From assembly GCA_049840735.1 (NCBI GenBank), contig JASGJN010000022.1, positions 160,001 to 224,000 of the forward strand: a stretch of 64,000 bases of DNA, written 5' to 3'. Made by a program: the position numbers and the translations under genes. The notes under the pieces are model-generated. The model was not told where the DNA came from, did no database searches, and saw only the letters and a list, made by a program, of their open reading frames with translations. Shown piece after piece: positions 19,097 to 28,058 of this stretch. Within the stretch, counting starts at the first letter, position 1; each line of letters opens with the position of its first letter. This DNA comes from Anaeromyxobacter sp. (lineage in GTDB: Bacteria; Myxococcota; Myxococcia; Myxococcales; Anaeromyxobacteraceae).

Positions 19097-22000
19097 TCAC
19101 CCGCTCACCAGCAGCGCCACCGGAAACTCCTCCAGCAGCCCCGCCACCTGCAGCGCCTCGCCCTGATGCTCCGCCCCGGTGACCACGTCGCGCCAGCGGC
19201 CCGGCAGGCCGGGCAGCGGCAGCGTCCCCTCCCAGCGCGGCGCGCCGCCGCCCTGCTCGGCCAGCGCCAGCGTGAGCCGGGGGGCCACGCACAGCGCGGC
19301 CCGCCCCTGGTGCAGGCGGGCGAAGGCGAAGAGGTGCGCCGCGTGCGGCCCCGCCGCCGCCAGCGGCCGGTGCTCGCCGTGCAGGAAGAGCGCGCGATCG
19401 GCGGCGCGGGCGTGCAGCCCGCAGTGCAGCAGCAGCAGCTTGGCGCGCCCGTCCGGCAGCGCCCCCGGCGCCGACACCTCGCGCACCAGCGCCCGCCGCG
19501 CCTCCGGGCCCTGCGAGAGCCGCCCCTGCAGCGCCTCCAGCAGGTGCCGGCGGTGGTCGTAGTCCACCGGCCGGCGGTTGTCCGGGTCCACCAGGGACAG
19601 GTCCCACAGCTCGGTCCCTTGGTAGACGTCCGGCACGCCGGGCGCGAAGAGCTTCACCGCCACCTGCGAGAGCGAGTGGCGCCGCCCGGCCTGCGCGGCG
19701 CGGCCGGCCAGCGCCGCCAGCCCGTCCAGGAAGGGCCGCGAGGAGAGGGCCCGCGCCACGAAGGTCCGCACCGCGGCCTCGTACTCCTCGTCGGGGTTGG
19801 TCCAGCTGGTGTGCCGCTTCCCCTCGCGCAGCGCCTTCTGCATGTATTGCTGGATCCGCTCCACGAAGGCGGCGTGGTCGGGCGTGCCGGGCGCGAGCCC
19901 CTGGTCCGGGAAGGCGCCGATCAGCGTCTGGTAGAGCAGGTACTCGTCGCGGCGGTCCGGCGCGGTCCGCCCCTCCTTGCGCAGCGCGTGGGGGCGGTTC
20001 TGCCGCGACCAGCGGGTGAAGGCGGCGCGGAAGTCGCCGGGCAGCTCCGAGAGCGCGTCGATGCGCAGCCGGACGTCCTCGCTCCGCTTGGTGTCGTGCG
20101 TGGAGGTGGCGGAGAGCGAGCCGGGGAAGCGGGCCTGCCGGTCGGCCAGGAGCCCGTGCACCTCCCCCGGCGAGACGCCGAAGCGGCGCGGCTCGCCGCC
20201 CACCTCGTTGAGCGAGACCAGCCGCACGTAGCGGTAGAAGGTGGTGTCCTCCACCGCCTTGGCCGTCACCGGCCCGGTCACCTGCTGCAGCCGCAGCGAG
20301 AACTCCAGCCACTCGCGGCGGGCCTCGTCGGCCAGGCCGTCTGGGTAGCGCTGCAGGATCACGTCGCGGAGGAAGTCGTAGATGGAGGGGTCCACCACCG
20401 GGCTGCGCCGCCGCGCCCGGGCGATGGTGGCCTCCACGGTGGCCCGGTCGCGCTCCTCCACCTCGCCGCGGCGGGTGACGTAGGTCCGGTAGATGGGGAA
20501 CAGCGCCACGTACTCGACCAGCGCAGCGCTGAGCTCGTTGAGCGTGAAGTCGCGGGTGCGCCGGTCGGTCTCTGAGAGGCGCGAGAGCCGGTGGGCCAGC
20601 ATGTTGACCTCGCTCGACATCGAGGCCGACATGATGAGCCGCTTGGCCTCGGCGGCCACCTCGCGCGGATCCTCGCGCCCGCCGGCCACGCGCGCGTGGA
20701 GCGTGTCGAAGGCGCGCTCGGCGGCGGGATCCACGAAGAGGCCGTTCACCGCGGCCAGGAAGTCGTAGCCGGTGGTCCCGTCCACGTCCCAGCCGTCCGG
20801 CATGCGCTCGGGGTGGACCAGCACCTTCTCCACCACCACGTAGAGCGGCCGCAGCGGGAGCCGCCCCGCCTCCAGCTCGGCGAAGAGCCGCTCCAGCGCC
20901 CGCGCCTCGGCGGCCGCGTCCAGCGGCGCGCCCTCCGCCGCCGCCAGCAGGCGGACCCGCTCCAGCAGGTGCGAGGCCTGCAGCCGGCGGAAGTAGGCGG
21001 GCGGCACGTAGAGGCCGTCGGGGTGGTCGATGCGCAGGCCGGTGGCCTTGCCCTCGCGGATGAGCCCCAGCACCACCCGGTGCGCCTCGCCGAAGACCGC
21101 CGGGTCCTCCATCTTGAGCGCGGCCAGCCCGTTCACGTCGAAGAAGCGGCGGTAGTTGATCTCCTCGCCGGCCACGCGCCAGAAGGCGAGCCGGTAGGGC
21201 TGCGCGTCGAGCAGCGCCTGCAGCGCGTCGAAGGAGCGCGGCTCGCCCGGGGTGCCGTTGAGCGCGGCCACGTTGCCGTCCACGTGCGCGCGCACCGCCT
21301 CGCTGGCCTCGCAGACCGCGGCCAGCCGGCGCTTCGCCACCTCCTTCTCCCGGGCCCGCTCGGCCACCGACTCCGGCGTGGGCTCGTAGCGCGGGGCCAG
21401 CTTCTCCAGGGCGGAGCAGATCGACTCCAGCTCCTGCACGTGCGGGTCGTCCGGCCCGGCCGCCTCCCTGAGCGCGTCCAGCCGGAGCCGCAGCACCTGG
21501 GGCACCGAGCGCGGCGTGACCGGGAAGGCGTGGTCCCAGTAGCGGATCAGGAAGGCGCCGCCCTCGCGCCCGAGCTTCAGCTCGCCCCGCTCCAGCACGC
21601 GGCCGAACTGGTCGCCCAGCACCGGGATCAGCACCTTGCCGGCCAGCTCGGCCTTGATCGGCGCCCAGTCCACGTCGAAGGCCCGGGCGTGGATGGAGGC
21701 GCGGCCGTTCTCCAGCAGGTCCATCCACCAGGGGTTCTGCGGACCGATCCCCATGTGGTTGGGGACGTAGTCGAGCAGGATCCCCATGCCGCGCGCCGCG
21801 CAGGCCGCCGCCAGGCGCGCGTAGCCCTCCTCGCCGCCCAGCTCCGGGTTGATCCGGCCGTGGTCCACGACGTCGTACCCGTGCGTGGAGCCGGGCGCGG
21901 CGGCGAGGATGGGGGAGAGGTACAGGTCGGTGATGCCCAGCGCGTGCAGGTAGGGCACCACCGCGGCGGCGGCGTCGAACCCGAACCCGGCGTGGAGCTG

Positions 22001-22108
22001 CAGCCGGTAGGTGGAGGCGGGGCGCGGGGTGATCCCCTCGCCCCGCGTGAGCCCCCGCCTCAACGCCTCGAGCAGCGCCTCGATCCGGCCGACGTCGACC
22101 GCCCCCAC
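19097..22108 (-). CDS. treY: Malto-oligosyltrehalose synthase
   Basis: [70 protein letters not shown]. Confidence 0.96.
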
Positions 22109-22156
22109 CCCGCCTCCCCCCGCCGATCCAGCGCGCCGCCCTGCGGCGCCCGCCCG

Positions 22157-23727
22157 CTACGGGCGACCCTGCGGGACCCGGCGGTGGCGGACGGACAGCG
22201 CGAGCAGCCGCTCGCGCGTGGCCTTGTCCGCGGCCAGGGCCGCGCAGTCCATCGGCATCCGGTACGTCCAGTTCTGGTCGGTGACCGTGCCCGGCACGTT
22301 CACCCGCTCGCGCGCGCCGAGCAGGTCCTGGAACGGCACCAGGGCCAGGTCGGAGCCGGCGCCGTAGATCATCTCCAGCAGCGCGTCGCGCACGCCCGTG
22401 TCGAAGGTCTTCGCGTCGCGGGCGCGGAGCGCCTCGAGCTGCGGCAGCTGGTGCATCGAGCGCCGCTCGTGCTCGGGCAGCGCGTCGTACCAGTCGGCGA
22501 CGGAGTCGGTGTCGTGGGTGCCGGTGGTGGCCACCGAGACGGCCGGCCACTTGGCCGGATCACGCCAGGGCTCGCCGGGGAGGTTGTAGTCCTTCTCCCA
22601 GCGCTGCACGCGGTAGCCGGGGATGCGGAGCCGCTCCAGGGAGTGGCGGACGAAGTCCGGCACCACGCCCAGGTCCTCGGCCACCACCGTGGCGCCCTCG
22701 GAGCAGATGCCCAGCACGGCCTCGCCGTTGCGCAGCTGCGCCGGCTCGTTGTCCGGCACGAAGCGGGCCGGGCCGCCGTCGTTCGGGAAGTGATAGGTCC
22801 GGTAGATGCCCACCACGTGGTCCACGCGGTAGAGGTCGTACAGGTCCGCCATGCGGCGGGCCCGCTCGCGGATCCACGGGTAGCCCTCGGCCGACATCTT
22901 GTCCCAGCGGTAGACCGGGAGCCCCCAGTCCTGGCCGGTGGGGCTGAAGGCGTCGGGCGGCACGCCCACGCGGGCGTCGAGCCGGAAGTCCTCGCGGCGG
23001 GCCCAGACGTCGGCGGAGTCGCTGGCCACCATGAAGGGCAGGTCGCCGCCCAGCTGCACGCCGTGGCCGTTGGCCTCGCGGCGCGCCGCGCGCCACTGCT
23101 CCTCGCCCACCCACTGCAGCCAGGTCTGGAAGAGGATCTCGCGCGAGTGGCGGGCGCGGGCGTCGGCCAGCGCAGCCGCGTCGCGATCGCGCAGCGGGGC
23201 CGGCCAGTCCAGCCAGCCGCGGCCGGCGAACTCGCGGTCGTGCAGCGCCACGAACAGCGTGTACTCCTGCAGCCAGGAGGCCTCGTCGCGGGCGAAGAGC
23301 TCCAGGCTCCTGGCGCGCGCGGTCTTCTTGCTCCACTCCTCCTTCTCGAACCGGTCGAAGGCGATCTGGAAGGCGCGGAGCTTCAGCGCGCGGACCTCGT
23401 CCCAGCGCACCTGCGGCGCGGCGCGGACCGCGGCCAGCCGCTTCCGCTCGTCGGCGGTGAGCGCGTCCTCGCCGCCCGCCTTGCGGAAGTCCTCCAGCGC
23501 GGCCGGCGAGACGTAGACCGGGTCGAGCGCGAAGGCGGAGAGCGCGCCGTACGGGCTGGTCTGGCCGCGCGAGGCCTCGTTCACCGGCAGCAACAGCACC
23601 AGCGAGAGACCCGAGTCCTTCGCCCAGCGGGTGAAGGGGACGAGATGGGGATCTCGCCGACGCCCCAGTCGGACTTGGAGCGGAGGGAGAAGAGGGGGAG
23701 GAGGACGCCTGCCTGGCGGGTGGTCAT
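22157..23727 (-). CDS. malQ: 4-alpha-glucanotransferase (apparent -1 error at 23644-23646)
   Basis: AGVLLPLFSL, SPYGALSAFA, GDLPF, GVPPDAFSPTGQDWGLP, YRVDHVVG, VAEDLG, TGTHDT, NVPGT. Confidence 0.93.
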
Positions 23728-23840
23728 GGGCGCGTAACCTGTTGGAGTTCCACCCCGCCCACAAGTTCGGTCTTGTGGCGCGAGGGGGCACCGGGATATC
23801 AGACTCGGCGCCCTGAAGGCACCCATCTTTCGAGGGGACG

Positions 23841-24812
23841 ATCACGACCACCCGCGGCCGCTTCGCCCCGTCTCCGACCGGCCCGCTCCACCTCGGCAAC
23901 GCCCGCACAGCGCTCCTCTCCTGGCTGTCCGCGCGCGCGCAGGGTGGCGTCTACCTCATGCGCGTCGAGGACCTGGACGGACCGCGGGTCCGCCCCGGGC
24001 TCGAGACGGCCATCCTGGAGGAGCTGAGGTGGCTGGGGCTGGACTGGGACGAGGGGCCGGACGTGGGCGGCCCATGGGCCCCCTACCGGCAGTCGGAGCG
24101 GCTCCCGCGGTACCGTGACGCACTGGACGTGCTGAGGCGCGCAGGGCGCGCCTATCCCTGCTTCTGCTCGCGCGCCGAGATCGCCGCGGTGTCGCAGGCG
24201 CCGCACGGGCCATCGGACGAGGGGCCCCGCTACCCGGGCACCTGCCGTGACCTCTCGGCCGAGGAGGTGGCGCGGCGCTCGGCCGCGCGCCGCCCTGCCT
24301 GGCGTTTCCGGGTGCCGGACGGGGAGGTGTCCTTCGAGGACGGCGTGCACGGGCCGCGGACCCACGACGTCGCGGCCGAGACCGGCGACTTCGTGATCAT
24401 GCGCGCCGACGGGGTGCCGGCCTACCAGCTCGCGGTGGTGGTGGACGACGCCGCCATGGAGGTGAGCGAGGTGGTGCGCGGCGACGACCTGCTCCCGTCC
24501 ACCGCGCGGCAGCTGCTGCTGTACCGCGCGCTCGGCCTGCCCGAGCCGCGCTTCGCCCACGTGCCGCTGGTGGTGGGGGAGGACGGGACGCGGCTCGCGA
24601 AGCGGCACGGCGCGCTCTCGCTGGGCGAGCTGCGCGCCCGCGGCGCCGATCCCCGCCGCGTGGCCGGCCTGCTGGCCCACGCCTCCGGCCTGACCCAGGA
24701 CGCCGGGCCGGTGGAGCCGAGGGCGCTGGTGGAGGGGTTCGCAGTGGGGCGGCTCCCGAGAGGGCCAGCGCAGCTCGCGAAGGCGGAGGTGGAGGGGCTG
24801 CTGGAACCGTGA
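23841..24812 (+). CDS. gluQ: Glutamyl-Q tRNA(Asp) synthetase
   Basis: GRFAPSPTGPLHLGN upstream of the listed ATG, RVEDLD, AYQLAVVVDD, VVRGDDLL, RLAKRHG; short, no anticodon domain; start codon uncertain. Confidence 0.9.
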   Translation: MTTTRGRFAPSPTGPLHLGNARTALLSWLSARAQGGVYLMRVEDLDGPRVRPGLETAILEELRWLGLDWDEGPDVGGPWAPYRQSERLPRYRDALDVLRRAGRAYPCFCSRAEIAAVSQAPHGPSDEGPRYPGTCRDLSAEEVARRSAARRPAWRFRVPDGEVSFEDGVHGPRTHDVAAETGDFVIMRADGVPAYQLAVVVDDAAMEVSEVVRGDDLLPSTARQLLLYRALGLPEPRFAHVPLVVGEDGTRLAKRHGALSLGELRARGADPRRVAGLLAHASGLTQDAGPVEPRALVEGFAVGRLPRGPAQLAKAEVEGLLEP

Positions 24813-24858
24813 CCCTGATCTCCGCCTTCCCTTGAAGGGACCCATTTCACGGACGGTC

Positions 24859-26049
24859 TCACCCCAAGGGCGCACGCGCTGGAGCAGGTGAAAGGGAGAG
24901 GGAGGGGATGAAGGCAGCCATCTTCTCGCGCCCGTAGGCGCCCACCGCCGCCCACTGGTTATGCGGACGGCAGCGGAGCCGAAGGTTGCGGGCGGTCGGC
25001 GGCCCGCCCTTCGCCTCCGGGTCGATGTGGTCCAGCTCCAGCTGCCAGCGGCTGCCGCAGCGGCGGCCGTCGGGCGAGACATAGGAGCAGCAGCCGCCGT
25101 CGCGCGCCCAGACCTCCCGCCGGACCTCGGCGGTGACGGTGCGAGGGTCGAAGCGGTACGGCGTGGCGATGAGGGGCACAGGCGCGTCGTCGCCCGACAA
25201 ACACTCGGACCCTGCCGAAAGGTCGGCGTCCACTGGCGCCGCAGCCGCAGCGTTCGTCGGCTCCGCCGCCCCCTTCCGCTTCGCATGCTTCTCGACCGCG
25301 CAGCTGATGGCCTCCTTGAGGACGTCCGCCAGGTTGCCGTCGGGAATCTTGTGGGAGAGGAGGTTGCGAAGGGTCTCGAGCTCGGCGCGTGCGTCGTCGT
25401 CCAGCGTGACCCGCAGCGACCACTGCTCGGCGTTGACGGGCCGAAGCTCGGGCCGGCTCTGGGCAGGGGAGGGAGCAGCGAGCACGAAGGCGGGCTCCGA
25501 GGAGACGGCCGGCTCCTGAGGCCGGGACGGAACCGCCTCAACCGACGCGGTCACCAGTGCAGTCACACCCGTTGGATCCACCGGACGGGGCTGGGGGGCG
25601 GCAGGGGGCTGAGAAGGGAGCCGACGTACCCCGTCCTTCGGCGCCTCGCGCGGCTTGATGGTGACGACCAGCCGCTCCACCTCGGCCTTGGACTTGAAGC
25701 CCGCGTTCCCGACCAGCTCCTCCAGGTTCGCCTCCGTCAGCACCTCGCGCAGCATCCCCAGCGTGGTGAGCGTGAGCCGCCCCTCTCGCAGCGGCGCCTC
25801 GAGGGAAGGGAACCGGGCGAGGAGACGCATGGTCGTGATGCGCCGGTACGCGCCGTCCTCGGAGAGGTGCAGCGCCTCCCGGCAGTACGCCCACAGCGAC
25901 GGGAACCCCTGGTCCAGGTAGAGCTTCCGCCGCTCGACCTCGGCCAGCACCAGCAGGAACTCGACCTTGATGCCCCGCTCGTCCGCAGCGAGCGACCGCA
26001 GGTGAGCGATGAGGGAGACGTTGTCCAGCGCATCGAGTCGAGCAGCCAT
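24859..26049 (-). CDS. HNH endonuclease with DUF222-like helical N-terminus
   Basis: RBS GGAGG then ATG at 26049; C-terminal RDGGCCSY..RC..ELDHIDPEAKGG..NLRLRCRPHN. Confidence 0.88.
   Translation of the reverse strand: MAARLDALDNVSLIAHLRSLAADERGIKVEFLLVLAEVERRKLYLDQGFPSLWAYCREALHLSEDGAYRRITTMRLLARFPSLEAPLREGRLTLTTLGMLREVLTEANLEELVGNAGFKSKAEVERLVVTIKPREAPKDGVRRLPSQPPAAPQPRPVDPTGVTALVTASVEAVPSRPQEPAVSSEPAFVLAAPSPAQSRPELRPVNAEQWSLRVTLDDDARAELETLRNLLSHKIPDGNLADVLKEAISCAVEKHAKRKGAAEPTNAAAAAPVDADLSAGSECLSGDDAPVPLIATPYRFDPRTVTAEVRREVWARDGGCCSYVSPDGRRCGSRWQLELDHIDPEAKGGPPTARNLRLRCRPHNQWAAVGAYGREKMAAFIPSLSLSPAPARAPLG
24861..24891. repeat. Direct repeat copy 1 (24 bp exact, 29/31 extended)
   Basis: ACCCCAAGGGCGCACGCGCTGGAG-CAGGTGA; second copy at 26426-26456. 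Confidence 0.9.
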
Positions 26050-26340
26050 GGCGTGCACCTCCAGCAGGTGCAGCCATCCTAACCGCGGATTTCGAGGGGC
26101 CCGCGGAGGCCCCTGGCGCATCGCCTGGCGCGAGATCTCGAGACCCCCTCTCCGCCCCCTCCCGCGCCTCCCCGCGCGCCGCAGGGATCACGAAGAGCGC
26201 TGCAGGAGAGCCGCTTCCTGCAGCCCCGTCCCGCGGAGACCGCCCCGCGCCCATTTCACGTCAAGCGAAATCTTCGCAATGCCTCGACACGCCCCACCTG
26301 CGCTTGCTCCAGCGCGCGGGTGACCTTGTTGGCGCCTGGG

Positions 26341-26387
26341 CTTCGACTCCGCGAGCCCTGCGGGCTCGCTACGCTCAGCCCGAACGG
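26341..26387 (+). repeat. REP-like palindromic repeat
   Basis: CTTCGACTCCG-hairpin-CTACGCTCAGCCCGAACGG, family seen several times in this window. Confidence 0.85.
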
Positions 26388-26425
26388 ATCCTTATCAGCA
26401 ATGACCTGACCCCACCACGGATTTG

Positions 26426-26456
26426 ACCCCAAGGGCGCACGCGCTGGAGTAAGTGA
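26426..26456. repeat. Direct repeat copy 2
   Basis: ACCCCAAGGGCGCACGCGCTGGAG-TAAGTGA. Confidence 0.9.
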
Positions 26457-26642
26457 CTGGCAGTTGACTCGAAGGGCTAGGCCCCCGGACAGCCGCGGCC
26501 GGAACCGCTCCGCTGTCAGCGCCCGAAGTCTCGCCGACTCACACCCGGACTGTCAGCGATGTCTTGACTGGGACCGACTGGTTCCCACTTGAGACGCCCC
26601 TCTTGCGCCTGCTCTGGAGCAGGCGCACCCGAAGTGAACACG

Positions 26643-27365
26643 CCCCTGTCCGTCCCCGTCCCCGTCCCCGCCACCCGTCCCCGTCCCCGCCACCCGTCCC
26701 CGTCCCCGCCATCCGCCCCCGCCCCCGCCCCCCGCCCCCGCTCCCGCCCCGCCCCGCTCCCGCCCCGCCCCGCTCCCGCCCCGCTCCCGCCCCGCTCCCG
26801 CCCCGCTCCCGCCCCGCCCCCGCTCCCGCCCCCGCTCCCGCCCCCGCTCCCGCTCCCGCTCCCGCTCCGCTCCCGCCCCCGCTCCCGCCCCCGCTCCCGC
26901 CCCCGCTCCCGCCCCCGCTCCCGCCCCCGCTCCCGCTCCCGCCCCCGCCCCCGTCCCCGTCCCCGTCCCCGTCCCCGCCCCCGCCCCCGTCCCCGTCCCC
27001 GTCCCCGTCCCCGTCCCCGCCCCCGCCCCCGTCCCCGTCCCCGTCCCCATCCCCGTCCCCGCTCCCGTCCCCGTCCCCGCTCCCGTCCCCGTCCCCGCTC
27101 CCGTCCCCGTCCCCGCTCCCGTCCCCGTCCCCGTCCCCGCCTCCCGCTCCCGCCCCCACTCCCGCTCCCGCCCCCACTCCCGCTCCCGCCCCCACTCCCG
27201 CCCCCGTCCCCGCTCCCGTCCCCGCTCCCGCTCCCGCCCCCGCCCCCCCACTCGCCCCCCCACCCGCCCCCCCACCCGCCCCGCCCACCCGCCCCCCCAC
27301 CCGCCCCCCCCACCCGTCCCCACCCGCCCGTCCCCACCCGCCCCGCTCCCCCCTCCCCAGCCCCA
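26643..27365. repeat. C-rich low-complexity hexamer tandem tract
   Basis: Runs of CCCCGT, CCCGCT, CCCCGC and CCCCAC units with very few A. Confidence 0.95.
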
Positions 27366-27497
27366 TTCACCCCTCGTCAACACAGCCCCGCCCACGGCGC
27401 CGGGGCAGGGGTTCCCCGGCGCCCTGTTCCGGCGGCAGGGTCACAGGCTAGACCCCGATGCCCGACACCCTCGCCCGTCACCGATTAGAACCCCCCC

Positions 27498-28058
27498 ATG
27501 CTCCGCGCCCCCACCTCTCCGCTCTGGCTCCCCATCGCCCTCGCCGACCTCCCCGCCACGCTGCAGGACCACGCGCACTGCGAGAAGAAGGCCGCCGCCA
27601 GCGCGCTCAAGCTGGTCGCCGACCACCCCGAGCGCGCAGCCCTGGTCCGCTCGCTGGCCCGCCTCGCGCAGGAGGAGCTGAACCACTTCCTGCAGGTCCT
27701 GGCCGAGCTCTCCGCCCGCGGCCTGACGCTGCCGCCCGACGGCGGCGATCCCGACGCGCAGGCGCTCCTCAAGCACGTCCGCAGCGGCGCGCCGGGCCGC
27801 CTCGTCGATCGCCTCCTGGTGGGCGCGCTGATCGAGGCGCGCAGCTGCGAGCGGCTCGAGCTCCTCGCCGGCGCGCTCCCCGAGCCGCGCCTGCGCGAGG
27901 TCTACGCGCGGCTCGCGCAGTCCGAGGCCGGGCACGAGCGGCTCTTCGTGGAGCTGGCGCGCGAGGCCGGGCCGGACGCGGACGCGCGCCTGGCCGAGCT
28001 GGCCGAGGCGGAGGCGGTGATCGTGGCGGGGTTGCCGCTCCTGCCGAGGATCCACTGA
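27498..28058 (+). CDS. miaE: tRNA-(ms2io6A)-hydroxylase
   Basis: DHAHCEKKAA, LAQEELNHF, DRLLVGALIEARSCER, SEAGH di-iron motifs. Confidence 0.93.
   Translation: MLRAPTSPLWLPIALADLPATLQDHAHCEKKAAASALKLVADHPERAALVRSLARLAQEELNHFLQVLAELSARGLTLPPDGGDPDAQALLKHVRSGAPGRLVDRLLVGALIEARSCERLELLAGALPEPRLREVYARLAQSEAGHERLFVELAREAGPDADARLAELAEAEAVIVAGLPLLPRIH

Follow-up and report, generated by a model that had tools for sequence, protein, structure and literature searches.

The window, by which we mean the whole 64,000-nucleotide stretch of Anaeromyxobacter sp. DNA analysed here, contains between a gluQ-like gene and miaE a cassette of about 2.58 kb with a single gene on the minus strand. Its features are listed below by window position, with strand where one applies.

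23844..24812, plus strand: host gluQ-like gene, left flank (tRNA-synt_1c match; start position uncertain)
about 24856..27438: whole cassette, ~2.58 kb, delimited by homology among copies
24856..24891, plus strand: left partial unit of the 41-bp repeat, at the ragged downstream cassette end, encoding the last codons and stop of the opposite-strand gene
24859..26049, minus strand: gene of 396 aa with predicted helix-turn-helix (HTH), ribbon-helix-helix (RHH) and HNH parts (Pfam and structure model)
26050..26300, minus strand: conserved leader with ribosome-binding site (copy alignment)
26303..26316, minus strand: inverted half-site of the repeat, varying among copies
26334..26388: host REP-like palindromic repeat (267 genome matches)
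26426..26477, plus strand: 41-bp array, one full unit (26426–26466) and a decayed second unit
26604..26639: symmetrised site, a perfect 11-bp palindrome followed by CAC-N5-GTG
26640..27350, plus strand: C-rich expansion of simple repeats that differs from copy to copy
27353..27438: conserved upstream terminus with a hairpin of 10-bp stem (27396–27423) and a sharp end at GGCAG
27498..28058, plus strand: host miaE, right flank

The cassette and its copies

The preliminary description of this locus had placed the element at 24841..26630. These limits were too narrow, as homology among copies continues to the hairpin terminus, and because this terminus ends at 27438 the cassette extends over about 24856–27438 and the right-hand repeat is internal to it. 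The upstream terminus is sharp, common to the copies and ends in GGCAG (position 27438 in the window); downstream, the copies stop at differing points within ~25 nt of the left repeat. The empty gluQ–miaE junction expected in relatives was found: gluQ lies directly upstream of miaE in 10 of the 19 relatives with miaE, 650–750 bp from it in six, with no HNH hit between them, and not within 1.5 kb of it in three, one of which has a distant HNH homologue there.

The suggestion of a mobile element is supported in so far as this is a multi-copy selfish element: the three refuting conditions that were checked, on copy number, motifs and synteny, did not hold. The genome holds 13 cassette copies (12 full and one internally deleted, 1.2–2.6 kb each) at unrelated loci, most of them between host gene ends, with a common layout and with motifs conserved among copies. 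Each copy has one gene and no transposase, and 12 of the 13 genes are intact and open; a few distant relatives of the gene lie elsewhere in the genome, beyond these copies. A multi-copy selfish cassette is well supported under every reading except a host-driven or domesticated one. The 12 intact genes form one clade (SH-aLRT 100) in a quick tree from which broken genes and the internally deleted copy were excluded, and their pN/pS values of 0.34, 0.16 and 0.25 for the three protein domains demonstrate purifying selection. The two most similar copies share 95% protein and 94% DNA identity. Segment by segment, the 13 copies form a mosaic. The statistics for conversion tracts are weak, as 2 of 66 pairs reach the permutation floor.

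Upstream of the gene, each copy is laid out as leader, variable REP, 41-bp array, C-rich expansion and terminus. The leader is conserved in length over ~190 nt up to an invariant GTCAA. The REP at 26334–26388, whose 267 genome matches are of at least 40 nt, is a passenger, because in some copies other REP forms replace it or none is present. At 12 further loci the terminus and part of the upstream region occur without the gene. One variable pair of the terminal hairpin is complementary in 20 of 23 cases, with all four pair types represented, and the three mismatched cases favour no strand; we read the terminus as a selected DNA hairpin.

Repeats, candidate sites and the encoded protein

The direct repeat reported to enclose the HNH gene is an exact 24-mer at 24861 and 26426, its only two occurrences in the window (29/31 when extended), against a longest exact repeat of 15 nt in 200 shuffles of 24800–26630. 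Other observations of the preliminary description also held: the last codons of the gene (26049–24859, minus strand) fall in the left 24-mer copy, where the gene stops; a partial inverted copy with the sequence given there lies at 26303–26316; and the palindrome at 26604–26627 has perfect 11-bp arms around a 2-nt spacer. For a second direct repeat, CCCATTTCACG, both positions (24841 and 26250) are real and its significance was not upheld: its 11 nt are the usual longest repeat length in shuffles of 24800–26630, 140 of 200 of which yield a repeat of at least 11 nt, and it is absent from the left end of the other copies. In a spacer-specific test 5 of 200 shuffles equalled it, with 13 loci tested. 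As an element end or target duplication it was rejected, being at chance level.

The direct repeats had also been put forward as element ends, which they are not, because the right copy is an internal array unit ~1 kb short of the real end. Their use as recombination ends that release an excision circle was rejected, since at none of the gene-less loci does an array follow the left-end junction, and no full copy has array-upstream sequence on its left. The accompanying suggestion that the repeats are nuclease or protein sites fits the evidence in its protein-site form; the repeats are likely to be binding sites of the cassette's own protein and not cassette ends.

Across the genome the 24-mer has 62 matches at no more than four mismatches (19 exact), of which 13 are left ends, 44 lie in cassette arrays and five at gene-less loci. 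Its right-hand copy opens a tandem array of near-identical 41-bp units, which number 0–12 across the 13 copies and each contain a half-site and an AC-N5-GT dyad. The half-site also occurs as a palindrome, at 26604 in the window and twice in the copy at C13:369420, in the same layout with CAC-N5-GTG. Five other genomes contributed 40 loci, 26 of which have a similar AC-N5-GT dyad upstream of the gene; in the two closest genomes it usually follows a related half-site. Only this genome has the exact 41-bp unit: exact repeat scans of metagenome and genome collections, which may lack very close records, found nothing, and a DNA search of 36 other genus genomes gave no convincing match to it. Five copies bear an ATTC variant of the repeat at the left end, and four of these also have it in the array; the seven others with arrays lack it there. 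The variant tracks the HTH segment, where the predicted recognition helix begins with EGGA and not with EDGA/EDSA; because it is largely confined to one clade, this co-variation is weak evidence, worth about one event. We infer that the 41-bp unit is a binding site of the cassette protein, which would recognise the half-site and the AC-N5-GT dyad at three places: the leader, the array and the last codons of its own gene.

The 396-aa product matches the HNH family PF01844 at 22.1 bits (Pfam cut-off 21.4) and DUF222 (PF02720) weakly and below threshold, at 15.8 bits against a cut-off of 24.4 (E = 0.009). DUF222 was matched at E ≤ 0.05 by 13 of 114 relatives, the best at 4e-7, and a neighbouring Atlas cluster (score 0.93) contains 12% DUF222. 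The AlphaFold2 model (mean pLDDT 81.8) has three ordered parts with disordered linkers between them, namely a predicted ParB/KorB-like helix-turn-helix at ~aa 23–133 followed by a Pro/Ala linker, a predicted ribbon-helix-helix at ~aa 207–261 followed by another linker, and a predicted zinc-type HNH at ~aa 303–376. Residues 23–133 align with the DNA-binding domains of ParB, KorB and Spo0J at Z 7.0, 6.9/6.4 and 5.9, respectively (three ParB-family chains, Z 5.9–7.0, rmsd 2.8–6.5 over 91–108 residues). Folded alone, aa 207–261 retrieve mainly RHH proteins among the top 50 hits (Z no higher than 5.2; for NikR, 46 residues superpose at rmsd 1.7), and aa 300–376 align with HNH enzymes at Z up to 7.5. 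Fold Z-scores are middling overall (4–7.5); Foldseek returned no hit at E ≤ 0.001, and a sequence search of solved structures returned nothing below E 0.05. Residues H341, C321, C331 and C360 are invariant in all 114 relatives, and H363, N364 and N355 occur in 113, 112 and 88 of them. Neither the model nor Pfam gives a RuvC-like region, IscB matches being limited to aa 307–373, and the model contains no ParB N-terminal CTPase region. The product is predicted to be a DNA-binding, DNA-cutting protein with HTH and RHH folds and an intact HNH. A first search of 18 other genus genomes gave matches to its family in every one, between 3 and 41 apiece. The nearest named homologues belong to Anaeromyxobacter or Anaeromyxobacteraceae.

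Tn5-type ends in relatives and a strand-skewed flank

In five relatives (G017, G007, G031, G032 and G012) the gene family lies between 19-bp inverted ends, for which a consensus was built from 83 ends. It is present in 39 of 40 end-marked loci from G031, G032 and G012, the G031 share covering 29 of 35 pattern hits. Flanks match at 8 or 9 of 9 positions in 29 of the 30 loci with both ends when a 1-nt shift is allowed, a count that has no matched control and includes G032 sites in tandem tracts; in exact register, 10 of the 30 match, against 15 of 870 cross-pairs. These counts establish a target duplication of ~9 bp around the end-bound elements of relatives, the targets of which are REP hairpins and simple repeats. 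The Tn5 outside end, as printed in the accessible part of PMC2566895, shares 10 of 19 positions with the end consensus by hand count. Two identical IS in G032, with Tnp_DNA_bind and DDE_Tnp_1 domains, have similar ends and the same target tract, and related IS ends in seven genomes agree with one HNH-element end variant at 13–17 of 19 positions. A search of 37 genus genomes for an IS50-like transposase succeeded in only 10 of them. It was not found in G031, G017, G007 or G012, four genomes rich in end-bound copies, nor, with that query, in the present genome (94% complete), where other DDE_Tnp_1 genes are present. A Mutator-type transposase was rejected as the partner, being a mere fragment in G031 and absent from G017 and G007.

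The sister group of the 13-copy clade holds end-bound elements of G032, G007 and G017 (support 81, quick tree); automatic end labels on the tree were noisy, and only the genome-level presence of ends was used. In or near the 13 copies themselves the Tn5-type 19-bp end is absent (the highest matrix score was 6.7, where the training median is 32.6), no target duplication was detected (best 5–8 of 9 over 81 register choices each) and the 300–400-nt downstream arm of end-bound relatives is missing throughout. Copies in G014, G006 and G009 are likewise devoid of Tn5-type ends and target duplications. Two filled/empty comparisons involving G014, G006 and G002 reveal no duplication and the loss of a 30–48-bp spacer, and the end-less copies of these three genomes are old, because they occupy orthologous sites. 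These copies erode in place: the junctions of two filled orthologues differ, and two orthologous copies lack part of their sequence. The upstream end in G014/G006 is a fixed motif repeated several times, like GGCAG here. In the present genome a tandem repeat lies within 40 nt outside 11 of 22 termini, compared with 1.5% of random sites; 81 of 267 REPs have a nearby tandem repeat when both sides are counted.

Host DNA just outside the upstream end carries a strand-skewed scar, measured as a C/(C+G)-type ratio at fourfold-degenerate host sites on the plus strand. Up to 200 bp outside this end, 178 C and 56 G give a value of 0.76, and C exceeds G in 9 of 10 loci, those with fewer than eight sites having been dropped (3 of 13; the gene caller missed some flanking genes). 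The skew decays to 0.57 at 200–400 bp and 0.52 farther out, against a background of 0.50–0.53, and none of 20,000 background draws reaches 0.76. Left flanks stand at 0.43, and REP flanks are slightly skewed (0.55 right, 0.44 left). Gene-less termini give 0.69, which fits a protein acting in trans and also fits a domesticated or host-driven reading. End-less copies in G014/G006 and G009 have a decaying skew of 0.67–0.78, their left flanks also being C-rich (~0.6–0.7) with no decay, in sets that include orthologous, non-independent loci; end-bound copies in G017/G007 have no skew (0.50–0.52). In the window, C makes up 0.72 at the silent sites of the first 60 miaE codons, compared with 0.33–0.69 in 19 orthologues; for miaE alone the changes number nine G>C and four C>G, a modest effect.

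Routes of spread and known systems

Our best explanation, to which we assign about even confidence, is that the cassette is a non-autonomous passenger of Tn5-type ends that has lost these ends and whose protein nicks near its own upstream end. The ancestors of the 13 copies would have been moved in trans by an IS50-like transposase, and the copies would then have lost their Tn5-type ends in place. The protein would bind the 41-bp unit and nick near the terminal hairpin, with repair synthesis following. Repeated nicking and repair could drive growth of the 41-bp array and expansion of the simple repeats, and the same events could produce the flank skew, the erosion of ends and gene conversion among copies. 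Set against this passenger reading, the present genome shows no trace of a Tn5-type end, no target duplication and, as searched, no IS50-like transposase. Random erosion fits poorly, because all 13 copies stop at one terminus and are without the downstream arm. Self-mobilisation, which the preliminary description had proposed, is only a possibility; the relatives show a route by a trans-acting transposase.

Transposase-free self-spreading is the main rival, a less likely reading that we hold tentatively. Here the protein would bind and nick donor sites and host repair would copy the element into a new site, from the fixed hairpin terminus to a ragged stop shortly beyond the left repeat. The sharp shared upstream end with its ragged downstream counterpart (~25 nt) points this way, as do the 12 gene-less loci that retain the upstream part only, the reiteration of the terminal motif outside the end here and in G014/G006, and the uniform disappearance of ends and downstream arm from all 13 copies. 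Three separate end-less lineages are each multi-copy, the two filled/empty pairs from G014, G006 and G002 have no target duplication, and by eye the repeated IS ends of this genome do not match the cassette ends, all of which agrees with self-spreading. It is weakened by the absence of a recent copy (the closest pair being 94% identical), by the age of the end-less copies at orthologous sites in G014, G006 and G002, whose junctions are eroding, and by the Tn5-type ends of the sister clade; an HNH domain is also not known to have strand-transfer chemistry, which counts against it. Similarly doubtful is the broader proposal of a new element class, in which a ParB-like HTH/RHH/HNH protein would ride Tn5-type ends, escape from them, spread by nick-primed copying from the hairpin terminus, amplify its own sites into helically phased arrays and scar neighbouring host genes strand-specifically. 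If true, it would explain how DUF222/13E12-like HNH genes spread without a transposase.

An improbable reading makes the gene a regulator or nuclease that responds to damage and is either domesticated or neutral, its repeats serving as autoregulatory operators and the expansions and skew arising from host processes at hairpins. Purifying selection and the position of most copies between host gene ends agree with such a role, REP sites give weaker forms of the same signals, and mycobacterial 13E12 genes are LexA-bound and damage-induced according to the accessible part of PMC3381160. Lineage-specific expansions at unrelated loci, with the family in 18 of 18 genus genomes searched, and the IS-like ends in relatives argue the other way.

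Mobilisation in trans by an HUH enzyme (Y1/RAYT or IS91-like) or a reverse transcriptase recognising the terminal hairpin appears very unlikely. The hairpin is conserved with compensatory change and sits at one cassette end, with no fixed flank motif by eye; ends and target duplications are absent, and the genome has six Y1 matches and one reverse transcriptase. However, the reverse transcriptase locus and the five of six Y1 loci that were compared have no sequence in common with the cassette, and the reverse transcriptase, which carries a protease-like domain as a fusion, in our reading resembles those of retrons. An IS91 search gave no match anywhere, its controls included. Retro-transposition was rejected, the single reverse transcriptase of the genome being unlinked.

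The structured or RNA-associated element envisaged in the preliminary description found no counterpart in the data. For the leader (12 copies, both strands) the structure conservation index is 0.32–0.36 and the consensus energy equals that of column shuffles, single-sequence folding z-scores lie mostly between −2 and +2, and Rfam gave two weak, meaningless hits only; a structured RNA in the leader was rejected on all three counts. A sigma-70 scan gave no promoter match. An RNA-guided system, with the array or leader supplying a guide or scaffold RNA as in IscB/omegaRNA, HEARO, CRISPR or TIGR, is scarcely credible: the HNH is structurally near that of IscB (Z 6.1–6.8) and a repeat array lies beside the nuclease, but the 37 array units scored differ at scattered positions only, each position dominated by one or two bases and with no spacer, the leader folds no better than shuffles and has no meaningful Rfam match, the model has no RuvC, and the mismatched cases of the terminal hairpin show no strand preference.

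Among known systems, the cassette works like the mycobacterial 13E12 repeats (REP13E12, DUF222 + HNH), which are also multi-copy and dispersed, with a C-terminal HNH and without a transposase. Accessible passages on them describe 87 conversion events in 10 of 14 regions (PMC13061034) and recombination among copies with inversions (PMC13157036); these passages report no 41-bp arrays, Tn5-type ends, target duplications, flank skew or HTH + RHH layout. The N-terminus of 13E12 proteins is DUF222-like, whereas the DUF222 match here is weak (E = 0.009). Passenger derivatives of the IS50/Tn5 group (IS4 family) resemble the relatives in their 19-bp ends and ~9-bp duplication; the copies in this genome differ in having neither, and their passenger gene encodes a nuclease that comes with iterated sites of its own. 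IscB/TnpB (OMEGA) of IS200/IS605 is likewise a nuclease riding an often non-autonomous IS, and for TnpB the accessible part of PMC10690162 describes homing-like retention by the cutting of vacant sites. In contrast to these, we detected no RuvC and no guide or scaffold RNA, targeting is apparently by protein domains, and the carrier end (in relatives) is DDE-type, not HUH-type.

Free-standing HNH homing endonucleases also join an intact HNH motif to DNA-binding modules, and the GVE2 and Gme HNH enzymes have a fold similar to that modelled for the cassette HNH (Z 6.1–7.5). The cassette differs from them in occupying 13 unrelated intergenic loci and not one allelic site, and in having its candidate sites inside the element and not in an empty allele. 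The alignment of the modelled N-domain with ParB, KorB and Spo0J and the spacing of the direct repeats at about four helical turns recall ParB/parS and iterons, whereas the model has no CTPase region, the cassette has no ParA or Rep gene, and an HNH is fused. Among the literature titles and abstracts searched (few subscription journals, without ISfinder), none reports flank skew, arrayed sites or ends of the Tn5 type for DUF222-like HNH genes.

DUF222-like HNH genes abound, forming 6,110 clusters at E ≤ 1e-30 in a 50%-identity library, and their mycobacterial members are recombination hot spots described as having no defined function. The genus offers a testable route of spread: some lineages have IS50-like ends together with a candidate transposase, and others have end-less expansions. 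The flank scar is measurable and separates end-less from end-bound kinds, and the 41-bp unit is a defined candidate site; if the protein nicks at such a site, it would be a compact site-specific nickase with a modular DNA-binding part. Upstream of the G009 relatives only, a GAAC-N4-GTTC-like box, a candidate LexA-type motif, was seen by eye.

Sequence upstream of the HNH genes

The ~190 nt at window 26075–26265 and the corresponding segments in relatives are constant in length but divergent in sequence across four subfamilies; an invariant GTCAA bounds them on one side and, close to the start, a promoter-like box on the other. At loci L057–L060 of genome G009, a GAAC-N4-GTTC-like box lies immediately 5' of the HNH gene; we take this box to be a candidate LexA-like site, which would parallel the LexA control of mycobacterial 13E12 genes. 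The site variant found 5' of the HNH genes of G017 and G007 is CTATCGC-NN-GCGATAG, and palindromes of this type occur seven times in G000, the genome holding the window, with two near gene-less copies of the cassette's upstream terminus and another preceding a distantly related HNH gene.

CTATCGC-NN-GCGATAG-type palindromes in G000 (contig:position)
C26:12776
C26:476050
C26:552594
C20:224266
C21:353089
C13:763972
C17:152780

Insertion sequences and REPs

IS50/Tn5-like insertion sequences of the genus (L183:1187-2700 in G032; L219-L223; L229) carry 19-bp ends resembling those of the HNH elements. Those of G032 are inserted at (GGGGTC)n tracts, and one directly adjoins the end of an HNH element.

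The REP family represented at window 26334–26388 numbers 267 copies in G000, often adjoined by tandem repeats, and the flanking host genes display a slight symmetric strand skew (0.44 left, 0.55 right). Related REPs bound a 1.5-kb repeat present in five copies in the same genome.

miaE and other genes

Two similar TAGA-type promoter-like boxes lie 5' of miaE (window 27447–27500), the proximal one resembling the orthologues' box but with G-to-C changes. In G011, a distant HNH homologue (L080; 28% identity) is located ~740 bp upstream of miaE, apparently an independent insertion close to the same gene.

Upstream of gluQ, window 19097–23908 encodes, as we read the translations, putative malto-oligosyltrehalose synthase-like and 4-alpha-glucanotransferase-like proteins. 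The sole reverse transcriptase match in G000 (L243:885-2528, 547 aa) appears, on our reading of its sequence, to be retron-like and fused to a protease-like C-terminal domain.
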